A DNA stretch of 50,780 nucleotides from Candidatus Aenigmatarchaeota archaeon (lineage in GTDB: Archaea; Aenigmatarchaeota; Aenigmatarchaeia; QMZS01): assembly GCA_030600555.1 (NCBI GenBank), contig JAUVLW010000003.1, positions 1 through 50,780 on the forward strand, given 5' to 3'. Positions within the stretch are counted from its first letter, which is position 1, and every line of letters begins with the position of its first letter. Made by a program: the position numbers and the translations under genes. Below are positions 4,399-44,300 of this stretch, one piece after another. The notes beneath the pieces were generated by a model. It was not told where the DNA came from. It searched no databases and was given only the letters and a program-made list of their open reading frames with translations.

Positions 4399-5826
4399 TC
4401 ATTTTTTCTCAATCACCCATTTTCCGGTTCTACTGCTGCCAACTCTTTTAAGCCGTCCTTTTTTCTTTAGGTTATTTAAATGATACCTTACACCCACAAC
4501 CGTTAATCCAACCAGTCTTGACATCTCTTCAGCAGTTAGATGAGGGTTATTTTTTATTATTTCAAATATTTCTCTTTCCTTATACTCTCCTTTAAATTTT
4601 TTGGTGATAGTTTTAGTGATAGTCTTGGTGATAGTCTTGGTGATAGTAATTGGAAAAGTTATCTTGTAAAAATCAAAATCACCTTCAATAATTGGATTTA
4701 AATGATACTGGGCATTCCACCCATTTATCATTTTATGAAATCCACTGCCGATATTCTCAGAAAACCTTATATATCTAAATATCTTTGCAACTATAGGATT
4801 TCTTGGTAATGAGAAATCTTCTTTTAAAATTAATTCAATATCTTTAGGCAATGCCCCAGGATTATAAAATTCAAACCTGTTTATAAAAACCCTTATTCTT
4901 GGATTTGACCTGCTGAAATAATCAGTGTGAACTATCAAATTAACAAGAGCCTCCCTTATTGCCTGTAAATGTGGAGGATCATCATCCCTAACACCTTTTT
5001 TAATTGAAAAAGGTACATTAATTTTTCTTATTAATCTTTCATAAATATCAAAAAAAGTTATGAAGAGATTCCTTTCAGAAGATAAACGGTAATTATATCT
5101 TGCTGGCGCATCCTCATAAGAAGTGCCCTCGATTTCCAGATATTCTATTCTATAATCAGAAATCGCTTCCGCTAAACTATCTTCTTTTCCAAAAACCAAC
5201 AATCCGCCATAGGTAATCTTTCCGTCTTTTAACACACTTAACTTTTGAAGAAATTCTTTATCAGGCAGACCGTTGTACCTATGCGCGGGATTCATTTGAA
5301 TAAAAAAATTTCTATATTGTTTAATCGTTTCTCCGTCCAAATCCTCAAAATTAAAAGTTGTTAATTCCCGATCTTTTTCTTCAAAAGAGGCATTCCTAAA
5401 AAAAGAATCTATTTCTTCTTGTGTTGCTCTCTGGTTTCCGCTTGCTATTCGGATAAAAGTATTTTTCGGATTATTAAAATATATTGGCTTGTCTTTTGGA
5501 GATTTTTTAGGAATATAAAAAACAAGAACAGTTTTTTCACCAAAATTATATTTTTTACTAATAACCTCCATCCCCTTATTAAATTTATCCCCTGTTTTTA
5601 GAGTATTAGTGAAATCTTGCCCTACTTTTTCAGGATTTTTAACACCAACGACCTCATATTTTTTCCCTTCTTTCTTAACTCCAAAAACCAGCCACCCTCC
5701 GGCAGTATTTGAAAAAGCGCTCACGGTTTCCCAACTGCTTTTTGGAATCTCAGATTTAGCCTCTTTAACCTCAAAATCTTCCCACTCAATATCCTCAAGT
5801 TTCTCAACCAATTCTTTCTTATTCAT
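4399..5826 (-). CDS. AlbA_2 (Schlafen-like) / HATPase_c_4 / C-terminal wHTH putative transcriptional regulator (often annotated 'RecG-like')
   Basis: N-terminus ..[40 protein letters not shown] (AlbA_2 signature). Mid-region [13 protein letters not shown] (HATPase_c_4 signature). C-terminal wHTH ..[32 protein letters not shown]. The start overlaps the hsdM stop as ATGA. Confidence 0.82.
4603..4650 (-). repeat. In-frame 12-bp tandem repeat x4 encoding (TITK)4 linker
   Basis: ggtgatagtttt/agtgatagtctt/ggtgatagtctt/ggtgatagtaat on the plus strand. The protein reads [16 protein letters not shown]. Confidence 0.9.
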
Positions 5827-7394
5827 AATTTATACCCCAACCCTGAAAGATTCTTTTTAATTTCTTCTTCCAGTTTCTTGGATTCTTTAAACTGTTCACC
5901 CAACTCAGAAGTCAGTCTTTTCATTTTGTCATCAAACGGCTCCCCATCATCCTTCTCTTCTTCAATCCCAACATAACGACCCGGGGTTAAGATAAATCCC
6001 TGTTTCTCAATTTCTTCAGTTTTAACTGCTTTGCAGAATCCTAAAACATCTTCATACTTACCGCCTTCTCCTCTCCAGGAATGATAAGTATCGGAGATTT
6101 TTTTAAGTTCCTCATCAGTCAGTTCCCTATTTCTTCGCGTTATCATCTGCCCCATCTTCCGGGCATCTATAAACAATACTTCCCCTCTCCTATCCCTGAA
6201 TTTATGATTTTTCTTGTCCCGCGAAACAAACCACAGACAAGCGGGAATCATTGTGTTATAAAATAACTGGGAAGGCAACGCAACCATGCAGTCAACCAAA
6301 TCACCCTCAATAATGTTTTTCCTGATTTCGCCCTCATTTGAAGTATTTGAACTCATTGAACCATTAGCCAAAACAAAACCCGCAATTCCAAAAGGAGATA
6401 AATGATGAATAAAATGCTGCACCCAAGCAAAATTTGCATTCCCAACCGGAGGAACTCCGAACTTCCACCGAACATCATCTCTTAATAACTCTCCTTTCCA
6501 GTCGCTGTCATTAAAGGGGGGATTGGCAAGAACAAAATCCGCCTTCAAATCCCTGTGAGCATCATTGTGAAAAGAATCTCCCCATTGCACATTGGAGTCT
6601 ATCCCGCGGATTGCAAGATTCATTTTGCATAAACGCCAGGTTGTCTGGTTTGATTCCTGACCATAAACAGAAATATTTCCGATTTTCCCACCATGAGCCT
6701 CAATAAACTTTTCGCTTTGCACAAACATTCCTCCTGAACCGCAGCAGGGGTCATAGATTCTTCCTTTGTAAGGTTCAAGCATTTCAGCAAGCAATCCAAC
6801 AATGCTCTTTGGGGTATAAAACTGTCCTCCCTTCTTCCCCTCTGCATCAGCAAACTGACCTATAAAATATTCATAAACTCTTCCAAGAACATCTTTGCTC
6901 CTGCTCTCTTTATCCCCCAAACCAATCGTTCCAATTAAATCTATAAGTTCGCCCAATCTTTGCTTATCAAGAGCGGGTCTTGCATAATTCTTTGAAAGAA
7001 TTCCTCTAAGAGAATGATTATCTTTTTCAATTGCCTCCATCGCATCATCAATCAATTTTCCAATCTCAGGTTTTTTCGCATTTTTTTCAAGATAACTCCA
7101 CCTTGCAGCTTTCGGAACCCAGAAAATGTTTTCAGCTGAATATTCATCTCTATCCTCCATCACACCATAACGGTCAGAAGACTCTTTAACATACACTTCA
7201 CTCTTGGGGTCCAAAGTCTGTTCTTTCAAATAATTATATTTCTCTTCAAAAGCATCTGAAATATATTTCAGGAATATCAGCCCCAAAACAACATGCTTAT
7301 ACTCCGCAGCATCCATATTATTCCTCAATTTGTCCGCCGCCTGCCAGAGTTTCTGCTCAAAACCCAAATCCGAACCATTTGAACTGCCAACCAT
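5823..7394 (-). CDS. hsdM: Type I restriction-modification DNA methyltransferase subunit HsdM (N6-adenine)
   Basis: N-terminal HsdM_N-like [32 protein letters not shown]. AdoMet motif [12 protein letters not shown]. Catalytic NPPFN. Start moved to the internal ATG ([17 protein letters not shown]) rather than the track start at 7421. Confidence 0.95.
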
Positions 7395-7512
7395 AATTAT
7401 TGGTAAATTAAAACAACACAAAAGAATTTGGTTAATGCTCTAATACAAACAGGTTTTAAAAAGAGAATTAGCTTAAAATATTATATTATCACAAACTAAA
7501 ATTAATATAATT

Positions 7513-7707
7513 ATGGAAGATAAAATAAAAGAACTCGTTATAGCCAGACTTAGAAGAATGCCGCTAAACTATAAGTTTGCTATAAGAGGTGAGAGTCTTA
7601 GTAGAGCTGAATTAATATCTTGTGTAAATAAAAGAACTGAAATAGGCGAAAGAATTATTAAAATGCATCTCAATTATCTACGGTCTTTTAAAAAGAATGT
7701 AGAATAA
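7513..7707 (+). CDS. Small conserved hypothetical protein (64 aa)
   Basis: ATG ORF in an otherwise empty gap, divergent from hsdM. The pattern ..VIARLRRMPLNYKFAIRGESLSRAELISCVNKRTEIGERIIKMHLNYLRSF resembles a recurrent small protein family of unknown function. Confidence 0.5.
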   Translation: MEDKIKELVIARLRRMPLNYKFAIRGESLSRAELISCVNKRTEIGERIIKMHLNYLRSFKKNVE

Positions 7708-7716
7708 ATTTTATTA

Positions 7717-8634
7717 TCAAATCAAACCCTTATCCATAAAACTGAAATAATCCTCGAGATTTTTCCCGATTATTATGTGGTCCAGAACTCTGACATTAAC
7801 AAGGTCGCAGGCTTTAACAACTCTGTCCGTAGTTTCAATATCATCTCTCGAAGGATCCACCTCACCGGAAGGGTGGTTGTGAACAAGGATTATTGAAGAC
7901 GCTGTTTCTTTTGTGGCCTCTCTGACAATTTCCAGAGGATCAACAATGCTTGCATTCACGCTTCCCTTTGTCAGTTCCTTTGTGTCTATCACTTTATTTT
8001 TCCTGTCCAACAGAATAATATTGAAAAATTCCTTTTTTGAATCTCTCAAATAAGGACCATAAAAATCCCTGACAAATCCAATTACAGATTCCACATTATT
8101 CAGCCTTTTTTTGCTCTCAGCAATTTCCCGGTAAAACCTTTTTCCAATTTCCAAAGCAGATTTTATCTGAACACCCTTTGCCATCCCGATTCCTTTAATT
8201 AAACACAGGTCATCAACAGAAGCCTGGTCTATCCCCCTCAAATCCCTGAATTTATCCAGCAATTTTCTTGCCAAATCCTCCGCGCTTGAACCATCAAAAC
8301 TATTGCCGGTTCTTAAGATTATTGCTAATAATTTAATTAACGGAACATTCTCAGAACCAACTTTAATTAACATCTCTCTTGGTCTGTCTTCCTTAACCCA
8401 TTTCCTTATTGGTTTTGTTGTTCTTAATTTTGCGGATTCTTCTTTTACAAGTTCCCTAATTTTTCTGCAATCTTCTTTAGTCTTCAACTTTAATTTTTTA
8501 ATTATTTCATCTTTTCTTTTATCAAAAAATTTATCTTTTGGTCCACTGAAAGAAATTTTTCCAAATTTGCTGCAAACCGGATATGCTTTGCTCTTAACTA
8601 AATAATCAATTAAATCCTCTTTTGTTTCGTCCAT
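7717..8634 (-). CDS. radC: RadC-like JAB/MPN domain protein with HhH and a ~75-aa lysine-rich N-terminal extension
   Basis: Motifs DRPREMLIK..LLAIILRTG, HhH L(I)KGIGMAKG, and the JAMM motif HNHPSGEVDPSRDD. Confidence 0.85.
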   Translation of the reverse strand: MDETKEDLIDYLVKSKAYPVCSKFGKISFSGPKDKFFDKRKDEIIKKLKLKTKEDCRKIRELVKEESAKLRTTKPIRKWVKEDRPREMLIKVGSENVPLIKLLAIILRTGNSFDGSSAEDLARKLLDKFRDLRGIDQASVDDLCLIKGIGMAKGVQIKSALEIGKRFYREIAESKKRLNNVESVIGFVRDFYGPYLRDSKKEFFNIILLDRKNKVIDTKELTKGSVNASIVDPLEIVREATKETASSIILVHNHPSGEVDPSRDDIETTDRVVKACDLVNVRVLDHIIIGKNLEDYFSFMDKGLI

Positions 8635-12887: not shown

Positions 12888-13130
12888 TTAATTTGGATAT
12901 TTTGTTAATTCTCTTGGGTCCTTTCCATCTATTGTGATTCTATAAGAAACGCAGGAACCGATTATCTGCCTTATTTTTGCTTCCTCATTATTTCCGGGAA
13001 TTTCTAGGGTTTTAACCATTTCCTTGATTTTTTCCATAGAAAGGTCTCCCATTATCTCTTCTTTTTTGTCCTTACTTGAAAGTTTTGTAAAGTTGCCCGC
13101 TTTCTTTATCAATTCTGATATTGTTGCCAT
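12888..13130 (-). CDS. Hypothetical 80-aa protein
   Basis: ATG ORF with no motif. Preferred over the overlapping 5' part of track ORF 13024-13401. Confidence 0.4.
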   Translation of the reverse strand: MATISELIKKAGNFTKLSSKDKKEEIMGDLSMEKIKEMVKTLEIPGNNEEAKIRQIIGSCVSYRITIDGKDPRELTKYPN

Positions 13131-13401: not shown

Positions 13402-13489
13402 TTTTTGTTTTTACCCGCTTTAATTATTTTTGAATTTTAAAATAGTTTTGAAGTGTAGTGTTCAATATATTCGGGTTTATAATGCTATA

Positions 13490-13666
13490 TGGGCCCGCCC
13501 AGATTTTCCAAATTTGTTTTTTGGGGTGCAGACCTTTTTCAACAATTATACTGAAAAGGGTTGCGTTGAACTGGGGATCTCCGCCATGTCAAGGCGACGT
13601 TTATTACAGATTTCTCTTTAAATTAAACCAAAGAAATACTGACCTAACCAACTAGACCACAGGCCC
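13490..13666 (-). tRNA. tRNA-Val (anticodon GAC) interrupted by two non-canonical introns (D-stem ~23/24, 42 nt; T-loop ~58/59-59/60, 61 nt)
   Basis: Three minus-strand exons restore a 74-nt cloverleaf.
- Exon 1 (13666-13643): GGGCCTG TG GTCT AGTTGGTTA GG.
- Exon 2 (13600-13566): AC G TCGCC TTGACAT GGCGG AGATC CCCAG TTCAA.
- Exon 3 (13504-13490): AT CTGGG CGGGCCC A.
The acceptor stem is 7 bp (one G-U), the D-stem GTCT/GGAC, the anticodon stem 5 bp and the T-arm CCCAG-TTCAAAT-CTGGG. No CCA is encoded. Splice boundaries are +/-2 nt. Confidence 0.8.
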
Positions 13667-13684
13667 ATAATTAACAAAAATTAA

Positions 13685-14929
13685 TTATTTACTCTTACTA
13701 TCAACAGCTCTATTATATACGCTTAAGGTCTCTGAAGCTACCCTATCAAGATTAAATATTTCTTCTGCGCGCTTCCTTCCTCTCTCGCCCATTTCCTTCG
13801 CCTTATTGTCATCCTTTAGAACTTCTTTGATTCCCCAGGCGATGTCTTCGTAACTTCTCCCATCAACATGAACCCCAGTTTGTTCCTCGCCACTTGCAAT
13901 AACCTGTTCCCTAAATCCAGAGATACCGCTTGCCCCAACAATAACTGGTTTCTTCAAACACATCCCTTCAAGTGAAACAATACCGAAAGGCTCTGCGGTG
14001 CTTGGGAAAATAGCAATATCCGATAAAGCATAATGCGCAATTCTTTCTTCCTCAGAAACAAATTCAGACCTTACAACAACCTTATCACCAATCCCATTCC
14101 TCTTTATAATCTCCTCAATGCTTTGTTGTTGTTCACCCTTACCCAAAACAATTAATTTCGTATTAGGATATTCTTTTAACACAATAGGAAAACCTCGCAC
14201 CAAACTTTCCGCGCCTTTAATCCAGGTCAACCTTCCAACAAAGAACACCACCTTTTCATTTTCCTTAATTTTATATTTCTTTTTTAATTCATCAACCAAA
14301 TCCCAATTCACATTTTCAAGTTTGTATTTATCAGTATCGCAACCGTTCCACACAACATTTATTTTTTCTTCTGGATATCCCAATTCTATTAAATGTTCTT
14401 TCATTGCATAAGAAACAGTAATCACCGAATCAGCCTGCTCGGCCATCTCTCTTTCAAAACTTCTTATTGTTGGACTTCCGCCTCCAACTCTCTGCTGTTC
14501 AGTTGAATGCATGTGAAACACAATAGGTAAATCAGTATCTTGTTTTATTATCAACCCTGCAATAGCAGATAACCAATCATGAATAACAACCAAATCATAT
14601 TTTTCATTTTTTAAAGTTTCATTTAAAAATTTCGCCGCAGAAAGATAATTATAAGAAAATATTTTGTTAAAAAAACTCAGATACTCACCCCAGTTATGCA
14701 GGTTCTCACTTACAATTAAATTTAACATTTCTTTGGCTTTTATAATATTTGGTCTATTAACCATTACATCACCCACCTGTTCGCTCGTCTTAAGGGTTCC
14801 ATCATTCAAAGTAAAAACCGTAATTTCATTGCCGAACTTTGCCAACCTTGGAGCAACCTGAGAAGCATAAGTTCCGAGACCTCCAACCATCAACGGCGGA
14901 TACTCCCACACAAAATAAGCAATCTTCAT
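13685..14929 (-). CDS. GT-B glycosyltransferase (GT4/GT5), putative glycogen/starch synthase
   Basis: N-terminus MKIAYFVWEYPPLMVGGLGTY, C-terminal E-x7-E motif FPSTAEPFGIVSLEGM. Neighbours are GH15 and GDE_C genes. Confidence 0.8.
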   Translation of the reverse strand: MKIAYFVWEYPPLMVGGLGTYASQVAPRLAKFGNEITVFTLNDGTLKTSEQVGDVMVNRPNIIKAKEMLNLIVSENLHNWGEYLSFFNKIFSYNYLSAAKFLNETLKNEKYDLVVIHDWLSAIAGLIIKQDTDLPIVFHMHSTEQQRVGGGSPTIRSFEREMAEQADSVITVSYAMKEHLIELGYPEEKINVVWNGCDTDKYKLENVNWDLVDELKKKYKIKENEKVVFFVGRLTWIKGAESLVRGFPIVLKEYPNTKLIVLGKGEQQQSIEEIIKRNGIGDKVVVRSEFVSEEERIAHYALSDIAIFPSTAEPFGIVSLEGMCLKKPVIVGASGISGFREQVIASGEEQTGVHVDGRSYEDIAWGIKEVLKDDNKAKEMGERGRKRAEEIFNLDRVASETLSVYNRAVDSKSK

Positions 14930-23838: not shown

Positions 23839-24813
23839 ATGAATAAAAACATAGAATTATATAAAAAAAAAATATTCGAAATTAAAAAAGAAATTCATAA
23901 AGGATTTATTGGTCAGGAAGATACAGTAGATGGAATTATTAAATGTTTAATCTGCAATTCTCATGTACTGCTTGAAGGAGTTCCGGGCGTCGCAAAAACC
24001 TTTTTAATTAAATGTTTGTCTGAAACAATAAAAAATTGCAATTTCTCAAGGATTCAATTTACTCCTGACCTTCTTCCAAGCGATATTACCGGAGTTCAAA
24101 TCTACGAAGAATCCAAAGGATTTTATGTTAGAAAAGGTCCTATATTTGTAAATTTTACTCTAGCTGATGAAATCAATAGAGCGCCTCCAAAAGTTCAGGC
24201 CGCTATGCTTCAATGCATGCAGGAAAGGCAGGTGACTATAGGAAGACAAACCTTTGACCTGCCAAAACCATTCTTCGTTCTTGCAACCCAGAACCCTTTG
24301 GAACAACAAGGAGTATACCCTCTAGGTATCGCTTCTGTGGATAGATTTTTATTTAAAATAAAAGTTGGGTATCCTGATAAAGAAGCAGAATTAAAAATTA
24401 TAGACTCAAATTTCGAAACAAAGGGTATTGATCAATATGGAATTAAAAAAATTGTATCGCTTGAAGATCTCTCTGAAATGCAAAAAGAAGTAAAAAAAAT
24501 ATTCATCTCAGAAGAGATAAAAGATTATATTACGCTTCTTATAGATGCAACAAGGAACCCGAAAAAATATAATCTTGAAACCGGAAAATATGTAAAATGG
24601 GGTAGCAGTCCAAGAGCTTCGATATATTTGGGTCTTGCAGCAAAATCAAATGCTTTATTTGATGGAAGAGATTATGTAATCCCAGAAGATGTGCAAGCTA
24701 TTGCAAAAAATGTGTTAAGACACAGGCTTATCTTAAGTTATGAAGGCAAAGCAAAAAATATTGAAAGTGATATTATTATTGATGAAATTTTGGACAAAGT
24801 TGAAATAATATGA
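23839..24813 (+). CDS. MoxR-family AAA+ ATPase, copy 1 (324 aa, intact)
   Basis: Walker A GVPGVAKT, Walker B ADEINRA, sensor ATQNP, AAA_lid region GSSPRASIYL. The usual PLPEAQLDRF motif is altered to PLGIASVDRF. Confidence 0.93.
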   Translation: MNKNIELYKKKIFEIKKEIHKGFIGQEDTVDGIIKCLICNSHVLLEGVPGVAKTFLIKCLSETIKNCNFSRIQFTPDLLPSDITGVQIYEESKGFYVRKGPIFVNFTLADEINRAPPKVQAAMLQCMQERQVTIGRQTFDLPKPFFVLATQNPLEQQGVYPLGIASVDRFLFKIKVGYPDKEAELKIIDSNFETKGIDQYGIKKIVSLEDLSEMQKEVKKIFISEEIKDYITLLIDATRNPKKYNLETGKYVKWGSSPRASIYLGLAAKSNALFDGRDYVIPEDVQAIAKNVLRHRLILSYEGKAKNIESDIIIDEILDKVEII

Positions 24814-25412
24814 ATCATATAGATAAAAAAGATTTGGTTGGGATAAAAAATAAATTTCAGGATTTAAAAAAAGAAGTTCATAAAGGAGTTATTGGTCAGG
24901 AAGAAACTGTTGATGGTATCATTAAATGTTTAATCTGCAACTCGCATGCATTGATTGAAGGAGTTCCTGGCGTCGCAAAAACCCTGCTAATCAAATGTTT
25001 AGCTGAAACAATAAGCGGAGCCAAATTATCAAGAATTCAATTTACTCCTGACCTTCTTCCAAGCGATATTACTGGCGTAGAAATATACGAAAAGAAAAAA
25101 GGTTTTTCAACCGTTTATGGACCCATATTCGCCACTTTGGTAACCGCTGATGAAATCAACAGAGCACCTCCAAAGGTTCAGGCCGCTATGCTTCAATGCA
25201 TGCAGGAAAGGCAGGTGACTATAGGAAGAAATACATTTGACCTGCCAAAACCATTCTTTGTTCTTGCAACCCAGAACCCTTTAGAAACAATGGGTGTTTA
25301 TCCGCTTCCGGAAGCTCAAGTTGATAGATTTTTATTTAAAATAAAAATGGGATATCCCAGCAGGGAAGATGAGAAAAAAATTATCCTAAACAATATAGAT
25401 GTAAAAAAATGA
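24810..25412 (+). CDS. MoxR-family AAA+ ATPase, copy 2, N-terminal ATPase core (split ORF)
   Basis: About 75% identical to copy 1 by eye and keeps the canonical PLPEAQVDRF. Ends at a TGA directly after GTA AAA AAA. Confidence 0.85.
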   Translation: MNHIDKKDLVGIKNKFQDLKKEVHKGVIGQEETVDGIIKCLICNSHALIEGVPGVAKTLLIKCLAETISGAKLSRIQFTPDLLPSDITGVEIYEKKKGFSTVYGPIFATLVTADEINRAPPKVQAAMLQCMQERQVTIGRNTFDLPKPFFVLATQNPLETMGVYPLPEAQVDRFLFKIKMGYPSREDEKKIILNNIDVKK

Positions 25413-32314: not shown

Positions 32315-35300
32315 TTAACCTGTGGCGTTTGCCATAATATAGATATAACCGTAATAATAGCCTGTGGTTATGCCTTGCGGGGTATTTATCCAGTAATATG
32401 TTGACTGATTTGTGCCTGCTGGGGCAGGAGAAACCATATCTTGATAGGATTCAGTTATATCTGCACCTACACCCGAATTATTGACAAAAGCATAGCTCAT
32501 ATTCTCAACATATATTGAATAACCCGAAGGTCCGGTTAAATTTGACCCTTTTATATATATTCCCTCCGCATCATTGGAATTTTCATTTATTGTAACATAA
32601 ACAGGTCCTCCAGCCAACTCAACTTTATTTACACTCGGCCATGAAGGCTCTACAGTAGCGCTAAGCTGATTATTAGAAAGACTCATTATCAGGACAATTG
32701 AAATATCTATCTTCGTATTGTTTGTATTATTATTTGATGACTGGGTTCCTGTGAACAAAACATCCAAATTCCAAAGGGTATGCAGATTTCCTGTTGAATT
32801 TATTGTCCAGTTTAAAAGACAGGATTCATTTTCATTCAGGGTTCCGCAACTCACAGGATTCTGAGCAGTCCCGTTTGAAGAATCTATAACATAAAAAGGA
32901 GTGGCATACCCAACACTAACTGCTGTATCAGGTTCAGTTCCTGATGAATTATATCTAATAGTTCCCTGCACAACTCCGCAATCTCCGCCTCTGCAGGTAA
33001 CATTTGCTTTCAGGACAAATATCCTGTCCATACCCACCTTATAACCTTCATTGGAATCAGCATCGCCTTTTCCTGGGATTGACGGTGGTAACATTAAAGA
33101 CACTTCAAAATTACTATTGCTCACCGAACTGTTTAGTCCTATAGTTGCATTTGCCTCATTTTTTTCTGTTGTATTATAATATACTGTTGAGTTGTGTGTA
33201 ATATTGCACATTGTAGTATAATTATCTGCGCTTAGCCCAGAGGTATCCCAAGATACTATTGCTATGCCTGTTAAATTTGTTGTGCTTAAAGAAATAAAAT
33301 GCCACCCCCCTTCTGTAGAATTTTGATAATAAAAATATACCGGATAATTCTCAATTTCATCTGAAGTATTAACATCTTTGACTGAACATGTTAAGTCTAT
33401 CAAAGTTCCTACAGAATAATTCCCGCCCGCAGGAGTTCCCCAGGTAATATTTGACCAACCCCATATTTCAATACTTACATTGTTAATTCCATCATCATAA
33501 TAAATTTTACTTGAATTAACTTTTATTGTTTCAGGACCTAATTTATAATCCACAGGTATTGTCCAATTCGTATCCTCTCCTGTCGCTATCTGTGAAGTTG
33601 AATTATGCCATAAAACTGAATCTGGTGTTACAGAGTTACTATTTTCATCAATAGTTGTTGAATTTAAATCAATTGTTTCTCCTCTATGAAAAACCATATT
33701 TGCTGCAGGATAAGCAATAGTTGTATTAAGCAGTCCCTTTACAGTTAAAGTATTTGACCTTGTTATCGGGATTCCTGTTGAAGTATTATAATATATTGAT
33801 GGCGCATCATAGATTTTGCAACTAAAACTATTGCTCCCAACCGGATACTCAGATATATCATAAGTAAAATAAGCTGTTCCGTTTTCATCTGTGGTATTGC
33901 TTCCTATACTGGCAGTACTATTATAAAAATACACTAAATAATTTGCCACATCCCCTGAATTATATATATCTGTAACATTGCAACTAAAAGTAACATCCCC
34001 TCTATAAACACTGCCTGTTGGAGCATTCCAGGTAAGATTGCTTTTACCCCAAACATAGAAATTCTTGTATGGTAGAGAATCATTCCAATTATTATTCTGG
34101 TCTTTTGTATAAATTTTTACAGAATGCTCTCCAACCAGCCAAGTTGAATCTGTATCTATTGTATAATTTGTCCAGTTTTGTGGGTTAAGAGAAGGCAACG
34201 TTATTGTATAATTCTGGAAAGAATCTGTTGTTGAATTAAATTCTGCTTGCGATTCATTTATTGATTCATTCCATCTTGCATAAACAAGAACGGATTCCCC
34301 TTTCCAAACAACTGTATCATTCAAATCATAGATATCATTGTATAAAACAGGTGGTTTAGTATCGCCTGTTTTAGTATCTAAAATACTTTTTCCTTCATTC
34401 TGGGAAGAAGCATTATAATACAAAAAAGAGGCATCAGTAATATTACAGGTTATATTCTCATAACCAAGAGAATTATCAACAAAACTATACTCAGCCCAAC
34501 CTGTTGAATTTGTTGTGTTTGTTCCCAACAATCCTGTTGAGTTATAGAAAGACACAGTATAATTAAAGATTGATGCAGATGAATCCGCATCCCTCACCTT
34601 ACAAAACATTGTTGTGCTGTTTCCAGGTTCAATTGTGGAAGGATTTAAAAAATGTTCAGAAATCTCCGACCAACCCCATACATTCAAATAAAATATATTA
34701 GTTTGATTTAAATTGCCAAAAGTATCATTTGCGTAAATTTTCCAATAAATTTCTCCAGGTGTTATTGAAATATTTGACCATGTAAAATTTGCCCAACTTC
34801 CAGTGTCATTTAAATCCATAGGAGAACCATAAGAGGTTTTGTTTTCCCAAACCCCAGTTTCATTCGTGGATAATATTGCATAACATAACTCAAAATTATC
34901 CTGCCAGTAAGAATATATGATTGTGGGGTCATTTTTATGCACCACAGTTCCATTGTCAGGCCCAACATTTGAATAATTTGGCGGCTGGTTTTCACTGGTT
35001 TCCAAAAGTTCAACTAATCCATCCTGAGAAGAAGCATCATAATACATAGAAATCGGATCCGTAATATTACAGGTAATATTTTCAAACCCCAGAGAATTAT
35101 CAACAAAGCTATACTCAGCCCAACCTGTTGAATTTGTTGTGTTTGTTCCCAACAATCCTGTTGAGTTGTAGAAAGACACAGTATAATCTGATATTGGAGT
35201 GCTATTGTCATCAGTCACCCTGCATCTCATAGTCGTAGACTGCCCCGGTTGAATAACACTTGGATCTAACGAAGAATTAGTTAATGAAGCCAAACCCCAA

Positions 35301-38300
35301 ACAGTAAATATTAAATAATCCAAAGTATCGTTCCAATTATAAGATAAATCTTTTGCATAAATTTTTACAGAATGCTCTCCAACCAACCAAGTTGAATTTG
35401 TATCTATTGTATAATTTGTCCAGTTTTGTGGGTTGGGAGAAGGCAAAGTCATTGTATAATTCTGAAAAGAACTTGTTGTTGAATTAAATTCTACCTGTGA
35501 TTCATTTATTGATTCATTCCACCTTGCATAAACAACAAGCGAATTCCCTCTATATAAATCAACCGTACTCAAATCATAGAGGTTATTATATAAAACAGGC
35601 GGATCACCCTCATATAAAATAATATGATAATTTGAATAATCTTCTTCTATTAAACTGGAAGTCTCTAATTTAAAATGCACTCCATAATCTTCACCATTTA
35701 AGGTTATGTTAACAACATAATAAAAAGTAATATTGTTACCAACACCAATACTTCCTCCCAACGAAGTATTCCAGTTTATTTTTCCCACGGAAAAATTACC
35801 TCCTGTAAAATTATGCGTGGAATTGCTATACCATATATCATTTATTCCGTCCACAGTCCAGGAATCATTTAGATATTCGTGGAAGATTGAATCAGAAGAT
35901 TGAATGCTCCATCCCGCTGAACTATTTTCATCATTATTAATAATGAGTTCAACTCGATAAACTTTAGAAGTATATAAATTAAAGGATTTATTTAATCCAT
36001 TTCCAATTAAATCTGAAATATCCGAATGAGTATCTTTTCCTGTAACATCATATATTTTTATCTCCTGTAGACTCAAATCTATTGAAGATGAAATTATATT
36101 AAACTCATAACTGCCATTAATACCACTTCCATTATCTATCTGCAAAACATTTCCTGAAGAATCCCTTAAAACCGCATAAATACGATAAGAACCAGGGGTT
36201 TCTTTGCTGGTGTTCCAAGAAATTGTATTCCAAATTCCGGCCAAATCCAAAGCCTCACCAGAAATTATCTTCCTGGAAAAAGTCTCATTAATAGTTGTAT
36301 TTACAACAACCCAATCTCCACTAACATTTGAGTAAACCTGCATCAACAAATAACCGGTTATATCTGTAGAACCTATATTTGAAAGACAGGAACCATTATT
36401 CCAAGTAACATTCCAATTAGTTATAATTGGTGAACTTGAGGTGTTTGTTGTTGACATATTTGCATATACTTTTATTGAACTCGCGCCTGAAGCGCAAGAA
36501 TGAATATCATATCCTGAACTGGCTTCTGCAGAAGTTATTGCGCACAACACCGAATTATCAGAAGTGTCTAATAAATTATAAGTGACCTCTGTTCCTGTTT
36601 GCACTGTAGCCTCAACAAAAAATTTATCCCAACCCGCAAGATGTGTTGGAGTTATTGGTACTGAAGTTAGATTCCCTTTGAGTTCATATCCATCATATTC
36701 CACATCCAGTTTAACATAATCAACATATAAATATTCACTGGTGGTCTCTGAACCCCATATCCAAAGTATATGACCACTTCCATTAACCACATCTAAAAAC
36801 CCTGAAGTAAGAGAACCTTCAACAGTTGTATCTGGTGGATTTTGTGTCACTTGCTGTTGGACAACCTGTATCCATGAACTGCAATTTGGAAGAGTTGCTG
36901 TATTAGCTGTGAGATTGCAAACATATACTCTGCTGGTAACATCCACACTCCCATACCCTTCTCCAGTAAAATTTATTCTTGTAATTTTAGAAGCATTTTG
37001 AGCAAGTCTCATCTGAGTTCTAATCCACATCCGGTCTCCAACACCAGGGTCAGGCAATTGCCAACGAGTACCCCCTGAGATTGCAATAGCGGTGTAATCT
37101 GTTGATGTAGCTGCAACTTCACTATTTGGATTGCTTTCAGGAGGCGCATTATTTGATTCTACAGACCACGCCCAGCAATCTGTTCCTGTGGTGCAGGAAT
37201 CAAAATCATAGGTTGTTGAATAAGCGGTTTCATTAAGTCTTGCTGTTCCATCAGTTATATCATAATCAGAAGATAAAGAAGAATTTATTTTTGTCTCATC
37301 ACTGAAATTATCTTCCCAGGAACCTAAACCGCAAGCTGTGAGATTAACCATTTTATTTGGTTCATAAGAATTTTTCTCAGTCAAAATTTTTATTGAAGCA
37401 TTTGCCTTAACATAAAAATAATGATTAACAGACTGATTTGTTTTTCCTGCTGTGTCATTAGTCCAAATATAATAGATATAAGTGCCTAACTGCCAGGTAT
37501 TTGTAAAATTATATTCATAAATATCCTCAGTATTATTGGTCATAGAATAATAATTAGTTTGTGAATCCGGATCTGTTATATAAACTCTTACTAAATCCAC
37601 ACCTTCTTCGTCAGTTACATTCACCTGTATTGTAACATTGTATCCATACCCGACTATTTGCGGTGTTGCTGAAATATCCATAATCAAAGGCACATCATGC
37701 ACAGTTATTGTTGTTGTATTTTCACGAGAATTTGTGTATTTGGTTTCAGAACCCAGATAAGTAATATTTATTGTATGGGTGCCTACTGAAGCGCCACCCA
37801 GGATTATATAATTCGCCCTTGCCCAACCACCTGAATCTGTTGTATCTGAACCAATATCCTGTGAAGCAGTCTCATCCCTAAAAGATACAGTTTCTCCAAC
37901 CATAACACTTCCATTATCATACAACAACCTTGTGGATAACTGAATTGTTTCTCCCCTAACAGGGTCTGAATTATTTGAACCAATATTCGCAAAAGAAGTA
38001 TTTGCATGTACGGTAATATAACGTATTTTCCATGCTGCGCCAAAATTATCCGAGGTTGATTCTAATTCAACCTGTTGCTGTCCAAGTTCTGCTCCGATTA
38101 ATAAATTAACAGTAATATTATTCCAATCAAGTTCAGAAGGACTTAAATTCCCTACAAATTTATTTAGATTTCCTGTGGTATTTACCCAATTTGAAGGAAG
38201 AGTCCAGTTTGAAACAACCTCTAATGCATCCTGAGAAGAATTTTCATTAATAACATAACCCTTTAAATCAGTTGTGTTTCCTCTGGTTATTTTAACAGGG

Positions 38301-41300
38301 TAATATGTTATATTAACGTCCATGGCTCCTCCAACCCTCACCTCTAAAATTTTATTCTGCAACTCTTCCCTTGAATGGAATTCAGAACCGGGGTTTGTAT
38401 AATTTAAAGTAGCATTTATGTTATAATCTCCTGCGGGAGTTGATGAATTGGTGGATATATTAAAAGTAGCCACTGAACCTGAACTTATATTTCCCAAATC
38501 ACAATAATCATTGGTGGTCCCTTCACACACACAAACCAAACCAAGTATATTAGGACAGTTTATTTTTACCGCAACATCAGTGAGATTTTCAGAGAAAGGA
38601 TTATTTATAGTAAAATTATAGGCGGTAAATTCGCCGGTGTCTATTTCTGATGGATCTAACACTGAAGAAACATTTTGTTTTAAATCATGTATTTTAAATA
38701 TATAAGAATGATTTTCGACATAATTTCCTCCCGGGTCCCAGGTCAGCGAAATATTCCACTTGAAATCATAAGTCCCTGTAGCAGCATCAGAAGGAATAAA
38801 ATAACCTTGCGTACTATTGTCAAATCTTTTCTCGCAGGTTTCATCTTTATTTATTGTGCCGCATGATTTTGTTTCATCCGGACCCCACGAAACCTTATTA
38901 TCAGAATTATCCAAAATATTCAGAGATATATTTGCATTAAGAGCAGTAGCATTTTTACTGGTAATTGTAATATTTATCCATTCCAGAGTATCTTCAAGTT
39001 CATATTCATTCACTCCATAAGTATACTCATTTTCATGTTCCACATTTGAAATAAGCAATTCAGCAGAGATTATTGTGAAATTGTATGTTGCTTCTATGTT
39101 ATAACCATTTGTATCTGTAAGAATTCCGCTATCAGGATTCCTTATGCTAGAATGAACCCGGTATAAACCACCATCATGACTATCAGTGTCCCACGCCCCA
39201 TTACTCACCCATACTGCTGAAATATCCAAACTGTTTCCTGGAATAATAGTTCTTGGCACCCAGTCATCCACCACAGGAATCCCATAATCATTCCAGGTAC
39301 CCCCGCTATATTGCTGTATTCTCATCAACAAATAACCAGTAAGATTATAAGAACCTGTATTCGTAAGTTTTGACTCAATTATATATTCTTCTTCTTCTCC
39401 AAAATCCACATAACTGCTCTGATATTCCGCCATTTCTTTTGTCTGATTTATCCAATCCATACTTCTAACCGTATTTGAAATGCGGACTTCGTCAAGGAAT
39501 CCATTCATATATTCAAGCGAACCAATATCATCTTCTATTCCAAAATATATATGACTATCTGCGGTATCATAAGTATGTGTAAAACCAGAGGCCAACTCTG
39601 AACCTCCCACATACCATCTAAGTGTAGTTCCATCATGCACTATCGCATGGTGTGTCCACACATCGGTTACAGGTGTCACTCCAGTATTCCAATCATTTCC
39701 GCCGCCCCAGCCCCACAAAAACCAATGATTGGTACGCACTGCAATTTCAAAATGTTGAGACGAACCATCTTCACCCCAACCAATAATACCGCATCTATCT
39801 GTATTATCTATGTTAAGCCAAAATTCTATGGTCCTTACAGAATTGCCAGTAATGCCTGCGTCATTAACTGATTCCAAATAATCATCAAGACCATCAAAAT
39901 CATCACCGCCGTCCACTACTGCTGAAGAAAGATGAGCTACCCCATTACCGGGATTGGCATTATTTGCATTTGAAGTTGAATCTTTGCGTACATTAGTTCC
40001 ATTTTCAGATAAATGCCAAACACCAGTATAATTGTTATCCCAAACACCCGTGATATTTTCCGCAGAATTTGCATTGGAATTTCCATAATACATATAAATC
40101 GTTGTTGTCCCTGTTGACAAATTAGGAATCCTGACCCAGACATCTAAATTATTATCTCCGCAATACTCAATTTCATAATCCATCAATGTAGAATTATCAA
40201 TAAATCTAACATCATTGCAATTAACCAGCATTTCAGATTCTTTTGATATATTTAGATAAACCGGAAAATTAATCAAATCAGTAGAACCTGCATTAGATAA
40301 ATTTATCTCCTTCCTGCGAGACCATGAAGAATTCCACCATATTGGATTGAAAATAGAAATATCCGTTAAATTAACCTGATTATTTGGTCCATAAGTATCA
40401 TTCACAGTAGCCACATACATCGCAGCATTCGCAACAACATAAAACGGATAAATTTCACTTGTGCTATTATATCCCGCAGAATTATTTGACCATATATAAT
40501 ATAAATACTCACCGCCTATCCATGTATTGGAATAATTATATTGGTACATTGTTTCAGAAATATTTATCATTTCATAACCTGTATAACTTTCACCAGGTCT
40601 TGCTATATAAACATAAACTTTATTTGCAGTGGTATCCAGCATCTCAGCTGAAATCAGAACAGTTTCTGAATAACCAACAATCTGCGGAGTTGCATTTATT
40701 GTTCCAAACACAGTTATCTTAAATAAATCATTGCCTTCTATTGAAACACCATCATCCCCCTGAAGAACATTTCCATTATCATCTGTCAAAGCAGCATAAA
40801 CCCTGTAAGTTCCGGAAGGACTTGAACCTGTATTCCAGGGATTAGCATTCCATAGAGAACCTATATCAAAATATTCTCCCGCAGAAATATTCCTCAAAAG
40901 AGAAACATTTGTATCATTAATTACCGTATCCACAACATTCCATAAACCTGAAGAATTGGTCTGCACTTGCATTAAAAGATAACCTGAAATATTAGTCTGA
41001 CCTGTATTTAATATAGAAGAACCATTATAAATATTTACCCAAACACCTGTCCAGTTTATCTCATCAATGTTGGAAGAATTATAATAATCAAAATTTATTC
41101 CTCTTATCCTTAAATCCCGGTTTTCTTCAGTTTCCCAGGATTCCAATATTGTTAAATTAGTTGTAAAAAGACTTACATTACCCGTTCCAGTAACATTAAA
41201 ATTACCAATCAAAACCCAATCAGAACCATCATATAATTCCAATTGCAAATCCGAATTATTATTTCCCCTTAAAGTAGAACCTGAATTATCATAAACCGGC

Positions 41301-44300
41301 ACATCCACAATAATTTCTATTTTGTTTAGCTCATTTAAAGCCCCGGAAATAACTTCTGTATAATTTGTATAGGTGGTATTTGCTTCTATTTCTGGAGGAG
41401 GTCCTATGGTCGCAGAAACATTTATTTCATCTATATATACATTATCATCATTTCCTGTTGCATCGCACTGAAAACGGATTTTCGAAGTTGTTGAAAAAGT
41501 ATAACTGGTTTCATTAATATACACGGTCTCATTATAAAATAAATCATTTACAAATTCAGTATTGTGATTATAATCTGCCACAGTATCCCATGAAGACCCA
41601 TCATCATCAGAATATCTCACCCAAAAATCTTCATCATCATCCATACTCAAAGCATAAAACCAAAAATCAATTTTTATAGATGTATAATCAGGAGTATCTA
41701 CATCCAAGCCATTGGTATGATAAAAAGAAGATGACGTGCCACTGTTGTCCCGGATATTCCCTGCATTAGAACCTTGATGCGCATAAGTGCCTCCAGTATA
41801 TAAAGAACAATCGCCGCCGCCATCAATATAACTCCCAAATCCAGATTCAAAATTATCATAAGTTAAAACAATCCATTCAGGCTCTAACAACCCTGCTTTC
41901 TTTTGCACTGCTCCATTTTCAAGATTATCATAAGTCTTATTTTCAAGCAAATTCAAAATAACATTCTCGTTTAAAGGGTAACTGTTTTTATTTACAGAAA
42001 CCGTTGAAGTTGCATTTCCATGCACATAAATATAAGGGTCATATATTTGGATATTCCCGGTAGTATCATTAGCAATTATTTCATAATAATAAGCTCCTGT
42101 TTTTGCAACCTGAAAAGAATACTGATAAATATCCTGTGAATTATTAACCATAACATAAATTTCAGGACTCCCGCCCGGAGGAGTTAAATTTAAGAGCACC
42201 GTATCAACCGCAATATTATCAGTAACATTCGCCTGCACAGTAACAATCTTCCCAAGACCAAAACTCTGGTTTACAGGAGATACATCAATTATATTTGGTT
42301 TAACAGGATCCTGCGTTATTGTAAGATAATGCGTTTCTTCTGTCGCAGTATAATTTTCATTCCCGCTGAAATTTCCTTTAATCAAATAAATTCCGTGACT
42401 GTAATCCAGCTTAGTTAGATTCTCCAACGGACTTGAACCTGAATCCCAAAGCTGCATTGTTCCTGTTAAATCAGTCCATAGTTCTACAGTCATTCCAGGA
42501 ACACTTAAACTCACCGTAAAATTGGTTGTATCATTTTGATAATAACCCACATCATCGTCTGTTCCGTTTAGGTAAAGGTTCAAAGTTGGTGTTGCTTTTT
42601 GCACTGTAAAAGATTGTGCGGGCATTGAATTATTCCAATTAGCCGCAGTATCATTTGCCCAATAATTCCAGCCCACGACTTCACCCCCTGTGAGTTGAGA
42701 AATGGGAATAATATAATCATAAACTGATCCTAAATTAGAAGGAGTATAATTCTCCCAGGAACCTGTGTAATTTGACCTAAAAATCACTGCGCTCAAATCA
42801 ACATTATCTTCCCATGTTGAATTACATTGAACAGAATCCCCATACTCAGGATTCCCTGAGGGTAATTGTATTACATTAGAATAAATTGGGGGTTGACTAT
42901 CTGTATAAGTTATGTTTAAATAAGGTCTCTGCGAAACAGAACACCCTGTGGGACTGCCAGAAATTGATTCCTTTGAACAAAATAAATCAGCTGTAAGGGA
43001 AGCTGATTCTGGAGTCCTTAATACTAAAGAAATATTAGAATCAACAGCAGCATACTCTATATCAACCATATTAGCCACATTCCAACAGACCCAACCCACT
43101 GCATTAATATTTTGCGTATCTTCTGCAGTAAGATTACAATCGCCTGAATCATCAAACCCTATACCGCATACCTGATTATTCCAAGTAATTCCTGTTTCAG
43201 TTTGCCCGTCCCAAGTATAATCATAAACATGATGCACAGAAGCGCTTGAGGTAGCACCATTGCTATATAAATATATACAAAATTTTGCTTCATCAATAAC
43301 AACACCTGAAGGAATTTCTGAAATATTGAATTTGATATAAATTCTTCGTCTTCTGGCCTGATAGTCTCTAAGAGATAAACTGGTATCTCCTCCGTAATTA
43401 GTATTTACCCGATTACTTCTGCTATTTACATAAGTATCCTCCAGATTTTCTGTATCTGCTGTCTGCAACTGGATTGTTGGGTCAAGCCACAATTCTGTTT
43501 TGTTTCCCACACCACCAATTAGAATTGTTGATTTGTTCACAATAGAAAGATTATAATCTTTAAGCAAATCATTAAATCCAAGATGAATTTCATCATTTAT
43601 TATAATACCTGCCTCGGTTTTTTTAATTTCATCCCAGGCAATCCCTTTAACATCAACCAATTCAAGACCTACATACTCAAAAGCTTCCGCAAGAAAAGAA
43701 GATATATTTGAAATATTTAAACCATATTTATAAACTTCATTATAATCATCTATCACTGCGCCTACTTCAAGTCCGGGAAACATATTCTGCAATTCATTAA
43801 AACTGTATCGGGTTCCCTTATAAATTGCAAAAGTCTGCAGTTCTAAAGAAGAGTTCGGCCATGAAATATAAAAAGAATTATTATTCCATTCAAAATCAAC
43901 AACATCTGTGAAATTAACATGAACTCCTGCTGAATCCACTAAAGTTTTTGTAGGTGAATTTATAATTAGACTGCATTCGCTTGATGCGCATTTCTGTGTT
44001 GGTTGTAAAGTTTTTATAGATAATGTTGAAAAATTTGTTACTGGTAGAATTTCAGGCTCGGAGGTAACAGTTGTAACTATTTTAATTGGAATTGCCGGCA
44101 CCTCAGATATAATTTTTGTTTCTTCTTTTACAAAAATCTCAGGGTTTTCTTTCACAGGCTCTTCCACAAAAACAACATCTTTCACAATTATAATTTTGGT
44201 TTCATCCCCGCATTTAATTAAATATTCCCCAGACTCTTGAAGGATATATTCTAGAGTTCCAAGACTTTTTTCTTTTAATTCTCCATCTTTATAGACCTCG

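Follow-up and report, generated by a model that had tools for sequence, protein, structure and literature searches.

A conserved tRNA-Val(GAC) gene of Aenigmatarchaeota probably carrying two protein-spliced introns at non-canonical positions

The 50,780-nt stretch of DNA analysed here (hereafter, the window), from a Candidatus Aenigmatarchaeota archaeon, contains on its minus strand three exon blocks separated by two short inserts. When joined, the three blocks form a 74-mer that ARAGORN identifies as tRNA-Val(GAC) with a standard cloverleaf (acceptor stem of 7 bp, D-stem of 4 bp, anticodon stem of 5 bp and T-stem of 5 bp), as had been proposed in an earlier reading of this DNA (hereafter, the original prediction). 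The cloverleaf, three syntenic orthologues whose exons are identical and whose introns have diverged, and the bulge-helix-bulge (BHB) and HBh' motifs at the junctions jointly support the interpretation of this locus as a real, conserved tRNA-Val(GAC) gene in which two small non-canonical introns interrupt the D-arm and the T-loop, respectively, and position 37/38 is free of an intron (Table 1, where, as in the text, ^ marks a cut site or a junction). In agreement with the original prediction, the anticodon arm is uninterrupted and the 3' strand of the D-stem (GG^AC) is split by 42 nt; the strands of the acceptor stem, for which a separation of 163 nt had been given, are 162 nt apart by our count. 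The GC content of the exons is 60.8% vs 33.4% for the window. CCA is not encoded at the end of exon 3, the bases following A73 being TAT.

Table 1. Exons, introns and associated elements of the interrupted tRNA-Val(GAC) gene, in window coordinates.
Feature	Position	Strand	Length (nt)	Content
Exon 1	13666-13643	minus	24	GGGCCTG TG GTCT AGTTGGTTA GG; same in the four orthologues
Exon 1, parts				tRNA nt 1-23: acceptor 5' strand GGGCCUG, U8 G9, D-stem 5' strand GUCU, D-loop AGUUGGUUA, G22 G23
Intron 1	13642-13601	minus	42	AT-rich; position 23/24, D-stem 3' strand
Exon 2, 58/59 register	13600-13566	minus	35	AC G TCGCC TTGACAT GGCGG AGATC CCCAG TTCAA (nt 24-58)
Exon 2, 59/60 register (favoured)	13600-13565	minus		nt 24-59; ends UUCAA(C)
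Exon 2, parts	13590-13588 (anticodon GAC)			anticodon arm UCGCC-UUGACAU-GGCGG, variable loop AGAUC, T-stem 5' strand CCCAG
Intron 2, 59/60 register (favoured)	13564-13504	minus	61	T-loop
Intron 2, 58/59 register	13565-13505	minus	61	T-loop
Multi-copy core of intron 2	13518-13564	minus	47	GCAACCCUUUUCAGUAUAAUUGUUGAAAAAGGUCUGCACCCCAAAA; ~90% identity to insertions in other loci of the source metagenome
Exon 3, 58/59 register	13504-13490	minus	15	AT CTGGG CGGGCCC A; includes A59 at 13504
Exon 3, 59/60 register	13503-13490	minus		U60, T-stem 3' strand CUGGG, acceptor 3' strand CGGGCCC, discriminator A73 at 13490
Conserved AT-rich upstream stretch	13667-13695	minus		TAAATAATTAATTTTTGTTAATTAT; ~15 nt invariant in the four orthologues

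In its unspliced form, the gene escapes detection, as the original prediction had anticipated for standard tRNA scans. ARAGORN reports zero tRNAs in the unspliced 50.8-kb window, Rfam produces no match to the unspliced locus at gathering thresholds, and even at E<=10 a 561-nt slice shows no partial tRNA match, only noise (HOTAIRM1, SCARNA7). Both inserts have to be removed: when either one is kept, ARAGORN calls no proper tRNA. A split or permuted tRNA gene was considered and rejected given that the three exons are collinear and follow each other in order on one strand within 177 nt, and a C/D-box small RNA inside the introns was rejected as well, neither the C nor the D box motif being present. 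Using blastn-short, no second copy of intron 1 or intron 2 was found inside the window. An intron-tolerant scan of the window for a T-arm plus acceptor stem, which is a limited test for other hidden tRNAs, recovered the Val gene alone with GC-rich stems; five further candidates are AT-rich and were taken as chance matches.

The tRNA identity of the joined exons follows from comparison with intact genes. Using the middle exon (exon 2) as a search pattern against 185,579 species-representative genomes, we obtained 23 loci, 20 of which come from Poseidoniia/MGIII, Thermoplasmatota and similar lineages and are all ordinary, uninterrupted tRNA-Val(GAC) genes. No gaps are needed to align the spliced 74-mer with 17 uninterrupted archaeal tRNA-Val(GAC) genes, and 67 of the 74 positions are identical; six of the seven differences comprise three stem pairs (4:69, 6:67 and 52:62) in which pairing is kept, and the seventh is T-loop position 57. 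Because the match is gap-free and the stem pairs are kept, the resemblance of the joined exons to a tRNA is judged to be far beyond chance. The remaining three loci (L002, L003 and L012) come from metagenome-assembled genomes (MAGs) labelled Candidatus Aenigmatarchaeota, to which the host locus shows ~92% nucleotide identity (contig prefixes JAGLVB01, QMZS01 and JAUWTN01); all three share synteny with the window, have insertions at the identical two sites and are missed by ARAGORN. In addition, a DNA contig from the cold-seep metagenome run that holds the window at 100% (X1) contains the tRNA-Val gene of a relative in which intron 1 is absent, the sequence ...GGTTAGG^ACGTCGCC being precisely the predicted junction between exons 1 and 2 (GG^AC). 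A second scan with exon 2, over metagenomes, added a single new locus, L026, the other match (L025) being the contig of L003; L026 is an uninterrupted tRNA-Val gene of a GC-richer organism, with the T-loop UUCAAAU. This gene has peculiarities of its own (L026 3232-3420, Ga0315294_10018857): an A52-C62 mismatch in the T-stem and, 114 nt upstream, a 15-nt direct repeat of the tRNA-Val 5' end (GGGCTCGTGGTCTAG) with a GC-rich hairpin region, which could be an integration scar or reflect another odd tRNA arrangement.

The four interrupted genes (that of the window and those of L002, L003 and L012, from genomes called species-level) differ sharply in the variability of their parts. Whereas none of the 74 exon columns varies, the invariance of exon 2 being in part an ascertainment effect of its use as the search pattern, variation affects 7 of 42 columns in intron 1, 48 of 61 in intron 2 and 103 of 200 third-codon positions in the adjacent glycosyltransferase gene; exons 1 and 3, which lay outside the pattern, are equally free of changes (0/39). 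Intron 2 is between 29 and 62 nt long and mostly unalignable; the intron nucleotides close to the BHB motifs are conserved among the four orthologues. Since the exons are invariant while the introns and the neutral third-codon positions vary, comparative analysis indicates that the locus is a functional gene under strong purifying selection and not a decayed copy, the outcome that the original prediction had named as telling against it. Since the orthologues do not share a homologous intron 2, the two overlapping plus-strand open reading frames (ORFs) over the gene (13430-13621 and 13458-13655), which had been called spurious, indeed cannot be conserved genes.

The target of the archaeal splicing endonuclease EndA consists of two 3-nt bulges around a 4-bp helix (PMC5829648, PMC6379350). 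A BHB scan finds a strict 3-4-3 motif of this kind for intron 1 exactly at the junction predicted from the cloverleaf, in all four orthologues. The central helix is formed by GUUA (13648-13645; G19-U20-U20a-A21) with UAAU (13606-13603), the bulges are GG^U on the 5' side (13644-13642) and AA^A on the 3' side (13602-13600), the inner helix consists of CAG/CUG plus 8 bp, and the outer helix of 2 bp (G18-C25 and U17.G26). The only change in the central helix, U-A to U.G in L003, keeps the pairing. The motif is present in the unconstrained minimum free energy folds of three of the four orthologues, and when the intron is shuffled at a fixed junction, a motif as good arises with p ~0.006. In the canonical geometry at 37/38, each cut falls after the second bulge nucleotide, and this rule reproduces the intron 1 junction exactly.

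For intron 2, the position of the junction is less straightforward. Registers 56/57, 57/58 and 58/59 all give one and the same product, with the T-loop UUCAAAU, and register 59/60 gives UUCAACU; the 74-mers of both the 58/59 and the 59/60 registers are valid tRNA-Val(GAC) molecules for ARAGORN. The original prediction was right about the length of the insert in the T-arm (61 nt) and placed the junction at 58/59; the BHB geometry favours 59/60, one nucleotide further 3', which we consider the likely site and which is the T-arm equivalent of 37/38. In all four orthologues, 59/60 is the best register, combining the 5-bp T-stem as the outer helix, a 3-nt AA^U bulge and a central helix formed by UUCA. 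A BHB at 56/57, 57/58 or 58/59 was rejected, with zero to three central pairs and no outer helix in any of the orthologues. In L012, all four central pairs form at 59/60 (with UGAA), that is, the BHB is strict. In the window, UUCA (13570-13567) faces GGAA (13509-13506), the 3' bulge is AA^U (13505-13503), and the 5' site AC^G adjoins an intron hairpin (GCA..CCUUUUCA/UGAAAAAGG..UGC) that is followed by a 17-nt A-rich linker before the central helix, so that the motif modelled at 59/60 is of the relaxed HBh' type. Thus, BHB-like structures, the absence of which at either junction had been named as grounds for abandoning the two-intron interpretation, exist at both; the internal hairpins that had been proposed for both inserts are present as well.

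The core of intron 2 is not confined to this gene. In X1, the contigs of which were compared with the locus, the core together with the adjacent GTTCAAC is matched at ~90% identity by at least 7 contigs, each at 11-16x depth, as for the contigs of the window itself. In the same run, intron 1 and the flanks of the locus occur as single copies. The unrelated intron 2 of the L002/L003 type, tested with the L003 sequence, is single-copy too. The core is also found in other sediment metagenomes (X2, X4 and X7). Most of the core matches (window 13518-13571) end at G53 of the universal GTTCAA, and beyond this point the flanks diverge; read in tRNA orientation, some of them resemble other tRNA bodies. 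They include a Lys(UUU)-like anticodon arm as well as further 3' strands of T-stems and acceptor stems, in front of which UGGA-AA^U or UGAA-AA^U makes a perfect 3' half of a BHB at 59/60. The core is directly preceded, in one contig of X4, by a D-arm and an anticodon loop that are Arg(UCU)-like, which suggests that the same intron resides at or near 37/38. Intron 2 of the window thus appears to belong to a multi-copy intron family that has seemingly spread among the tRNA genes of this genome, the origin of the copies from the same genome and the completeness of the tRNA bodies around them being inferred. Spread of an intron family among tRNA genes would also explain the presence of non-homologous introns at one orthologous site.

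A possible trace of the excised intron comes from a small metatranscriptome of the same sample (X21), in which one 140-nt contig, at a depth of ~22, contains a paralogous intron core that matches window positions 13519-13564. Within the 106 of its 140 nt that were seen, its upstream neighbour ...GGGGUUGCAUUGAAAA is joined directly, without the C, to GCAACCC at 13564. The join reads ...UUGAAAA^GCAACCC, with GGGGTTGCATTGAAAA upstream, and GCAACCC starts with the first base of the intron in the 59/60 register. A DNA contig from X2 that shares the downstream flank of the X21 contig continues upstream into GTTCAAC, i.e., into a linear T-loop context, and GGGGUUGC is complementary to GCAACCCC at the 5' end of the intron. 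These features are suggestive, and only suggestive, of a circularised excised intron of ~110 nt that would have been cut at C59^G and A^U60; metatranscriptomes may contain DNA. We tentatively raise a broader hypothesis, which we consider possible with the odds against it: the 47-nt core could be an actively proliferating BHB intron that has recently inserted copies of itself at two structurally equivalent loop sites, T-loop position 59/60 and anticodon-loop position 37/38, of several tRNAs in one Aenigmatarchaeota genome, has replaced an older, unrelated intron in tRNA-Val, and accumulates as a stable circular RNA once excised. If so, tRNA-intron 'transposition' would be known from a second lineage, an AT-rich one within DPANN, as an independent and recent case in which environmental transcriptomes show the donor RNA form, and the mechanism of intron gain in archaea (reverse splicing of circular introns vs conversion at the DNA level) would become testable.

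Given the exon-intron anatomy, the orthology, the selection on the exons and the BHB geometry, all of which are directly observed, we estimate at roughly 0.88 the probability that this is a functional tRNA-Val(GAC) gene with two protein-spliced (BHB-type) introns that are removed from the precursor. Under the pathway we propose, transcription would yield a precursor of ~177 nt, in which EndA would cut each intron after the second nucleotide of both bulges around the 4-bp helix. The strict 3-4-3 BHB of intron 1 would engage the D-loop nucleotides G19-A21, so that the D-stem would be blocked until this intron is excised. Intron 2, at the T-loop site equivalent to canonical 37/38 and most likely at 59/60, would be offered as a relaxed HBh' substrate (T-stem, AA^U bulge and a helix of 3-4 bp), with the 5' cut at the foot of the intron hairpin. 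The exons would then be joined by an RtcB-type ligase and CCA would be added post-transcriptionally. Because the intron 2 motif of the window is relaxed, it is reasonable to expect that the organism has a broad-specificity EndA.

Several observations weigh against this interpretation or parts of it. In three metatranscriptomes of the same study, no contig spans the junctions of this gene, the contigs that match exon 2 coming from other organisms. In the window, L002 and L003, the central helix of intron 2 has three of the four pairs, with an A.G mismatch (GGAA); in the window, the unconstrained fold favours the intron-internal hairpins over this helix, and the shuffle control for the relaxed motif is weak (p ~0.13). 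A Pfam search of 31 ORFs found no EndA in the 50-kb window, an uninterrupted second Val(GAC) gene may exist elsewhere in the genome, and the ascertainment effect on exon 2 mentioned above reduces what its invariance can tell. Some of these points are what one would expect of a decayed or inactivated tRNA-Val copy, in which the two insertions (the one in the T-loop being, e.g., a small repeat) are never removed and valine is decoded by another tRNA gene: spliced RNA is not seen in the metatranscriptomes, the intron 2 motif of the window is relaxed, and the source metagenome contains multiple copies of the intron 2 core, as would be the case for a small mobile insertion. Nevertheless, we regard such decay as very unlikely. 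A dead gene is expected to gather exon changes, whereas here the 74 exon positions stay constant at a divergence that has altered ~50% of the neutral sites and while intron 2 was exchanged or changed in length; the inserts sit exactly where a BHB can form; and the repeat copies in other tRNA-like bodies likewise end at the universal GTTCAA, which would imply that many essential tRNAs are dead. Still less can be said for self-splicing group I or II introns or for remnants of an element integrated at a tRNA attachment site, an explanation to which we assign a practically negligible probability. It is true that tRNA genes often serve as integration sites and that group I introns occur in bacterial tRNA genes and have been reported in archaea (PMC6125680). 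However, at 42 and 61 nt the inserts are far below the size of group I/II ribozymes, which effectively refutes this idea, Rfam gives no matches, neither an integrase nor a direct repeat of part of the tRNA is found next to the gene, and both inserts are bordered by BHB geometry.

A narrower alternative accepts a functional and spliced gene but places the T-loop intron at 58/59, so that the mature T-loop would be UUCAAAU, the commoner form. The uninterrupted tRNA-Val homologues carry A59 followed by U60 (UUCGAAU in 17 genes and UUCAAAU in L026), which slightly favours this register and counts against 59/60; moreover, its product passes ARAGORN and is the one on which registers 56/57 and 57/58 converge. 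Against it, 58/59 offers two of four central pairs and no outer helix in any of the four orthologues, compared with the 5-bp outer helix, 3-nt bulge and three or four of four central pairs at 59/60. The cut rule that points to 59/60 is the same one that accounts exactly for the intron 1 junction; the UGGA or UGAA followed by the AA^U bulge in the flanks of the paralogous copies fits 59/60 as well; the X21 contig joins ...GAAAA to GCAAC without the C; and 59/60 is a well-documented, established non-canonical intron position (PMC4090602, PMC3239211). On balance, we consider placement at 58/59 unlikely, albeit with an appreciable residual chance, and retain 59/60 for the T-loop junction.

Upstream of the gene, the conserved AT-rich stretch overlaps with the stop codon of the glycosyltransferase gene that precedes the tRNA gene and is a candidate for the promoter region of the tRNA gene, with possible similarity to TATA box and B recognition element (TATA/BRE) signals. 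The sequence places the host among the Aenigmatarchaeota (DPANN), from a cold seep or marine sediment, and the neighbouring ORFs encode archaeal housekeeping proteins, namely RNA polymerase subunit L (RpoL), ribosomal proteins S7 and L7Ae and a beta-CASP nuclease, along with the GT4 glycosyltransferase.

Several other features of the window deserve mention in their own right. An 80-aa ORF at 12888-13130 on the minus strand matches the C-terminal RNA-binding domain of ribosomal protein L11 alone (PF00298, 28.9 bits); no L11 N-terminal domain is found upstream of it in any frame, the space being occupied by the RpoL gene on the other strand. At 4399-8634, also on the minus strand, there is a defence-like cluster, with a local GC content of up to 38%, that encodes a protein with Schlafen/AlbA_2, HATPase_c_4 and HTH domains, an HsdM methylase of a type I restriction-modification system and a RadC-like JAB protein. 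At 23839-25412 on the plus strand, two tandem genes encode MoxR-type AAA_3 ATPases. The product of the second, at 200 aa, has no lid domain, and a gap of 370 nt separates this gene from the DUF58 and VWA genes that come next; the second gene could be a truncated duplicate in a BatA-like MoxR-DUF58-VWA cluster. Finally, two giant adjacent ORFs on the minus strand, of 4056 aa (32315-44485; Laminin_G_3, DUF2341 and bacterial Ig-like domains) and 2044 aa (44574-50708; no Pfam match), probably encode huge surface or adhesion proteins, which are common in DPANN episymbionts.

DPANN genomes are routinely reported with incomplete tRNA sets, and such gaps affect both estimates of genome completeness and claims of host dependence; the present locus is a comparatively validated case of an essential tRNA that is present yet invisible to ARAGORN and Rfam. 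It supplies an Aenigmatarchaeota training example of BHB and HBh' motifs for intron-aware tRNA finders, would extend multi-intron tRNAs that lack the canonical intron to another DPANN phylum, predicts a broad-specificity EndA in Aenigmatarchaeota and, through the multiple copies of the intron core, suggests that introns are still spreading, in a way similar to that described for Thermoproteales.

A full-text search of the literature found no description of tRNA introns in Aenigmatarchaeota. Multi-intron tRNAs with non-canonical positions and relaxed BHB motifs as such are already established in Thermoproteales, Thaumarchaeota, Nanoarchaeota, Methanopyrus kandleri and ARMAN-2. The original prediction, which had assigned such genes mainly to Thermoproteales and a few other archaea, was apt with regard to the kind of gene, but the host in this case is a DPANN archaeon and not a member of Thermoproteales. 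That disrupted tRNAs remain undetected in DPANN genomes has been explicitly anticipated (Kaneta et al., 2018; PMC5829648), and in DPANN the presence of an L3 insert in EndA correlates with the disruption of tRNA genes (PMC5829648). The BHB models of tRNAscan-SE 2 derive from Crenarchaeota/Euryarchaeota and Thaumarchaeota, DPANN being outside their training set (PMC8450103).

Among the known systems, ARMAN-2 (Ca. Micrarchaeum acidiphilum) is similar in being a DPANN archaeon in which a T-loop intron lies at or next to 59/60, the BHB at that site is relaxed, and a tRNA can carry more than one non-canonical intron with none at 37/38. Its pre-tRNA-Cys(GCA) contains a relaxed-motif intron at 59/60 and its pre-tRNA-Pro(GGG) has two T-arm introns, at 53/54 and 59/60 (PMC3239211); cleavage at 59/60 and of relaxed motifs was demonstrated experimentally, in vitro (Fujishima et al., 2011; PMC3239211). 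The two organisms differ in phylum, in the location of the second intron (T-arm in ARMAN-2, D-stem 3' strand, at 23/24, here) and in intron size, 13 nt vs 61 nt with a hairpin-plus-linker architecture in the window; the EndA of ARMAN-2 is of the epsilon2 type. The pre-tRNA-Glu(UUC) of M. kandleri, which illustrates the dependence of relaxed-motif removal on EndA inserts (Kaneta et al., 2018; PMC5829648), likewise combines a non-canonical D-arm intron with a second intron. However, it retains the canonical 37/38 intron and its D-loop HBh' intron is the relaxed one, whereas the D-arm intron described here is the strict one. Thaumarchaeota (Nitrososphaeria) share with the host the AT-rich genome, have many non-canonical BHB introns and require clade-specific BHB models (PMC8450103), but represent a different lineage.

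In Thermoproteales, multi-intron tRNAs and families of 'transposed' introns have been described (Sugahara et al., 2008; Fujishima et al., 2010; summarised in PMC4090602). These are hyperthermophilic, GC-rich Thermoproteota (TACK) with an (alpha-beta)2 EndA that has a crenarchaeal loop, whereas the present gene belongs to a DPANN archaeon that is AT-rich (33% GC) and comes from a cold seep or sediment, and position 23/24 is outside the list of intron positions quoted in PMC4090602. The similarities nevertheless extend to the tRNA genes themselves, with two to three BHB introns per tRNA at non-canonical sites that include the D-arm (22/23, 25/26) and the T-loop (56/57, 59/60), and may extend to the near-identity of introns in different tRNA genes of one genome, a pattern that the core of intron 2 appears to follow here.

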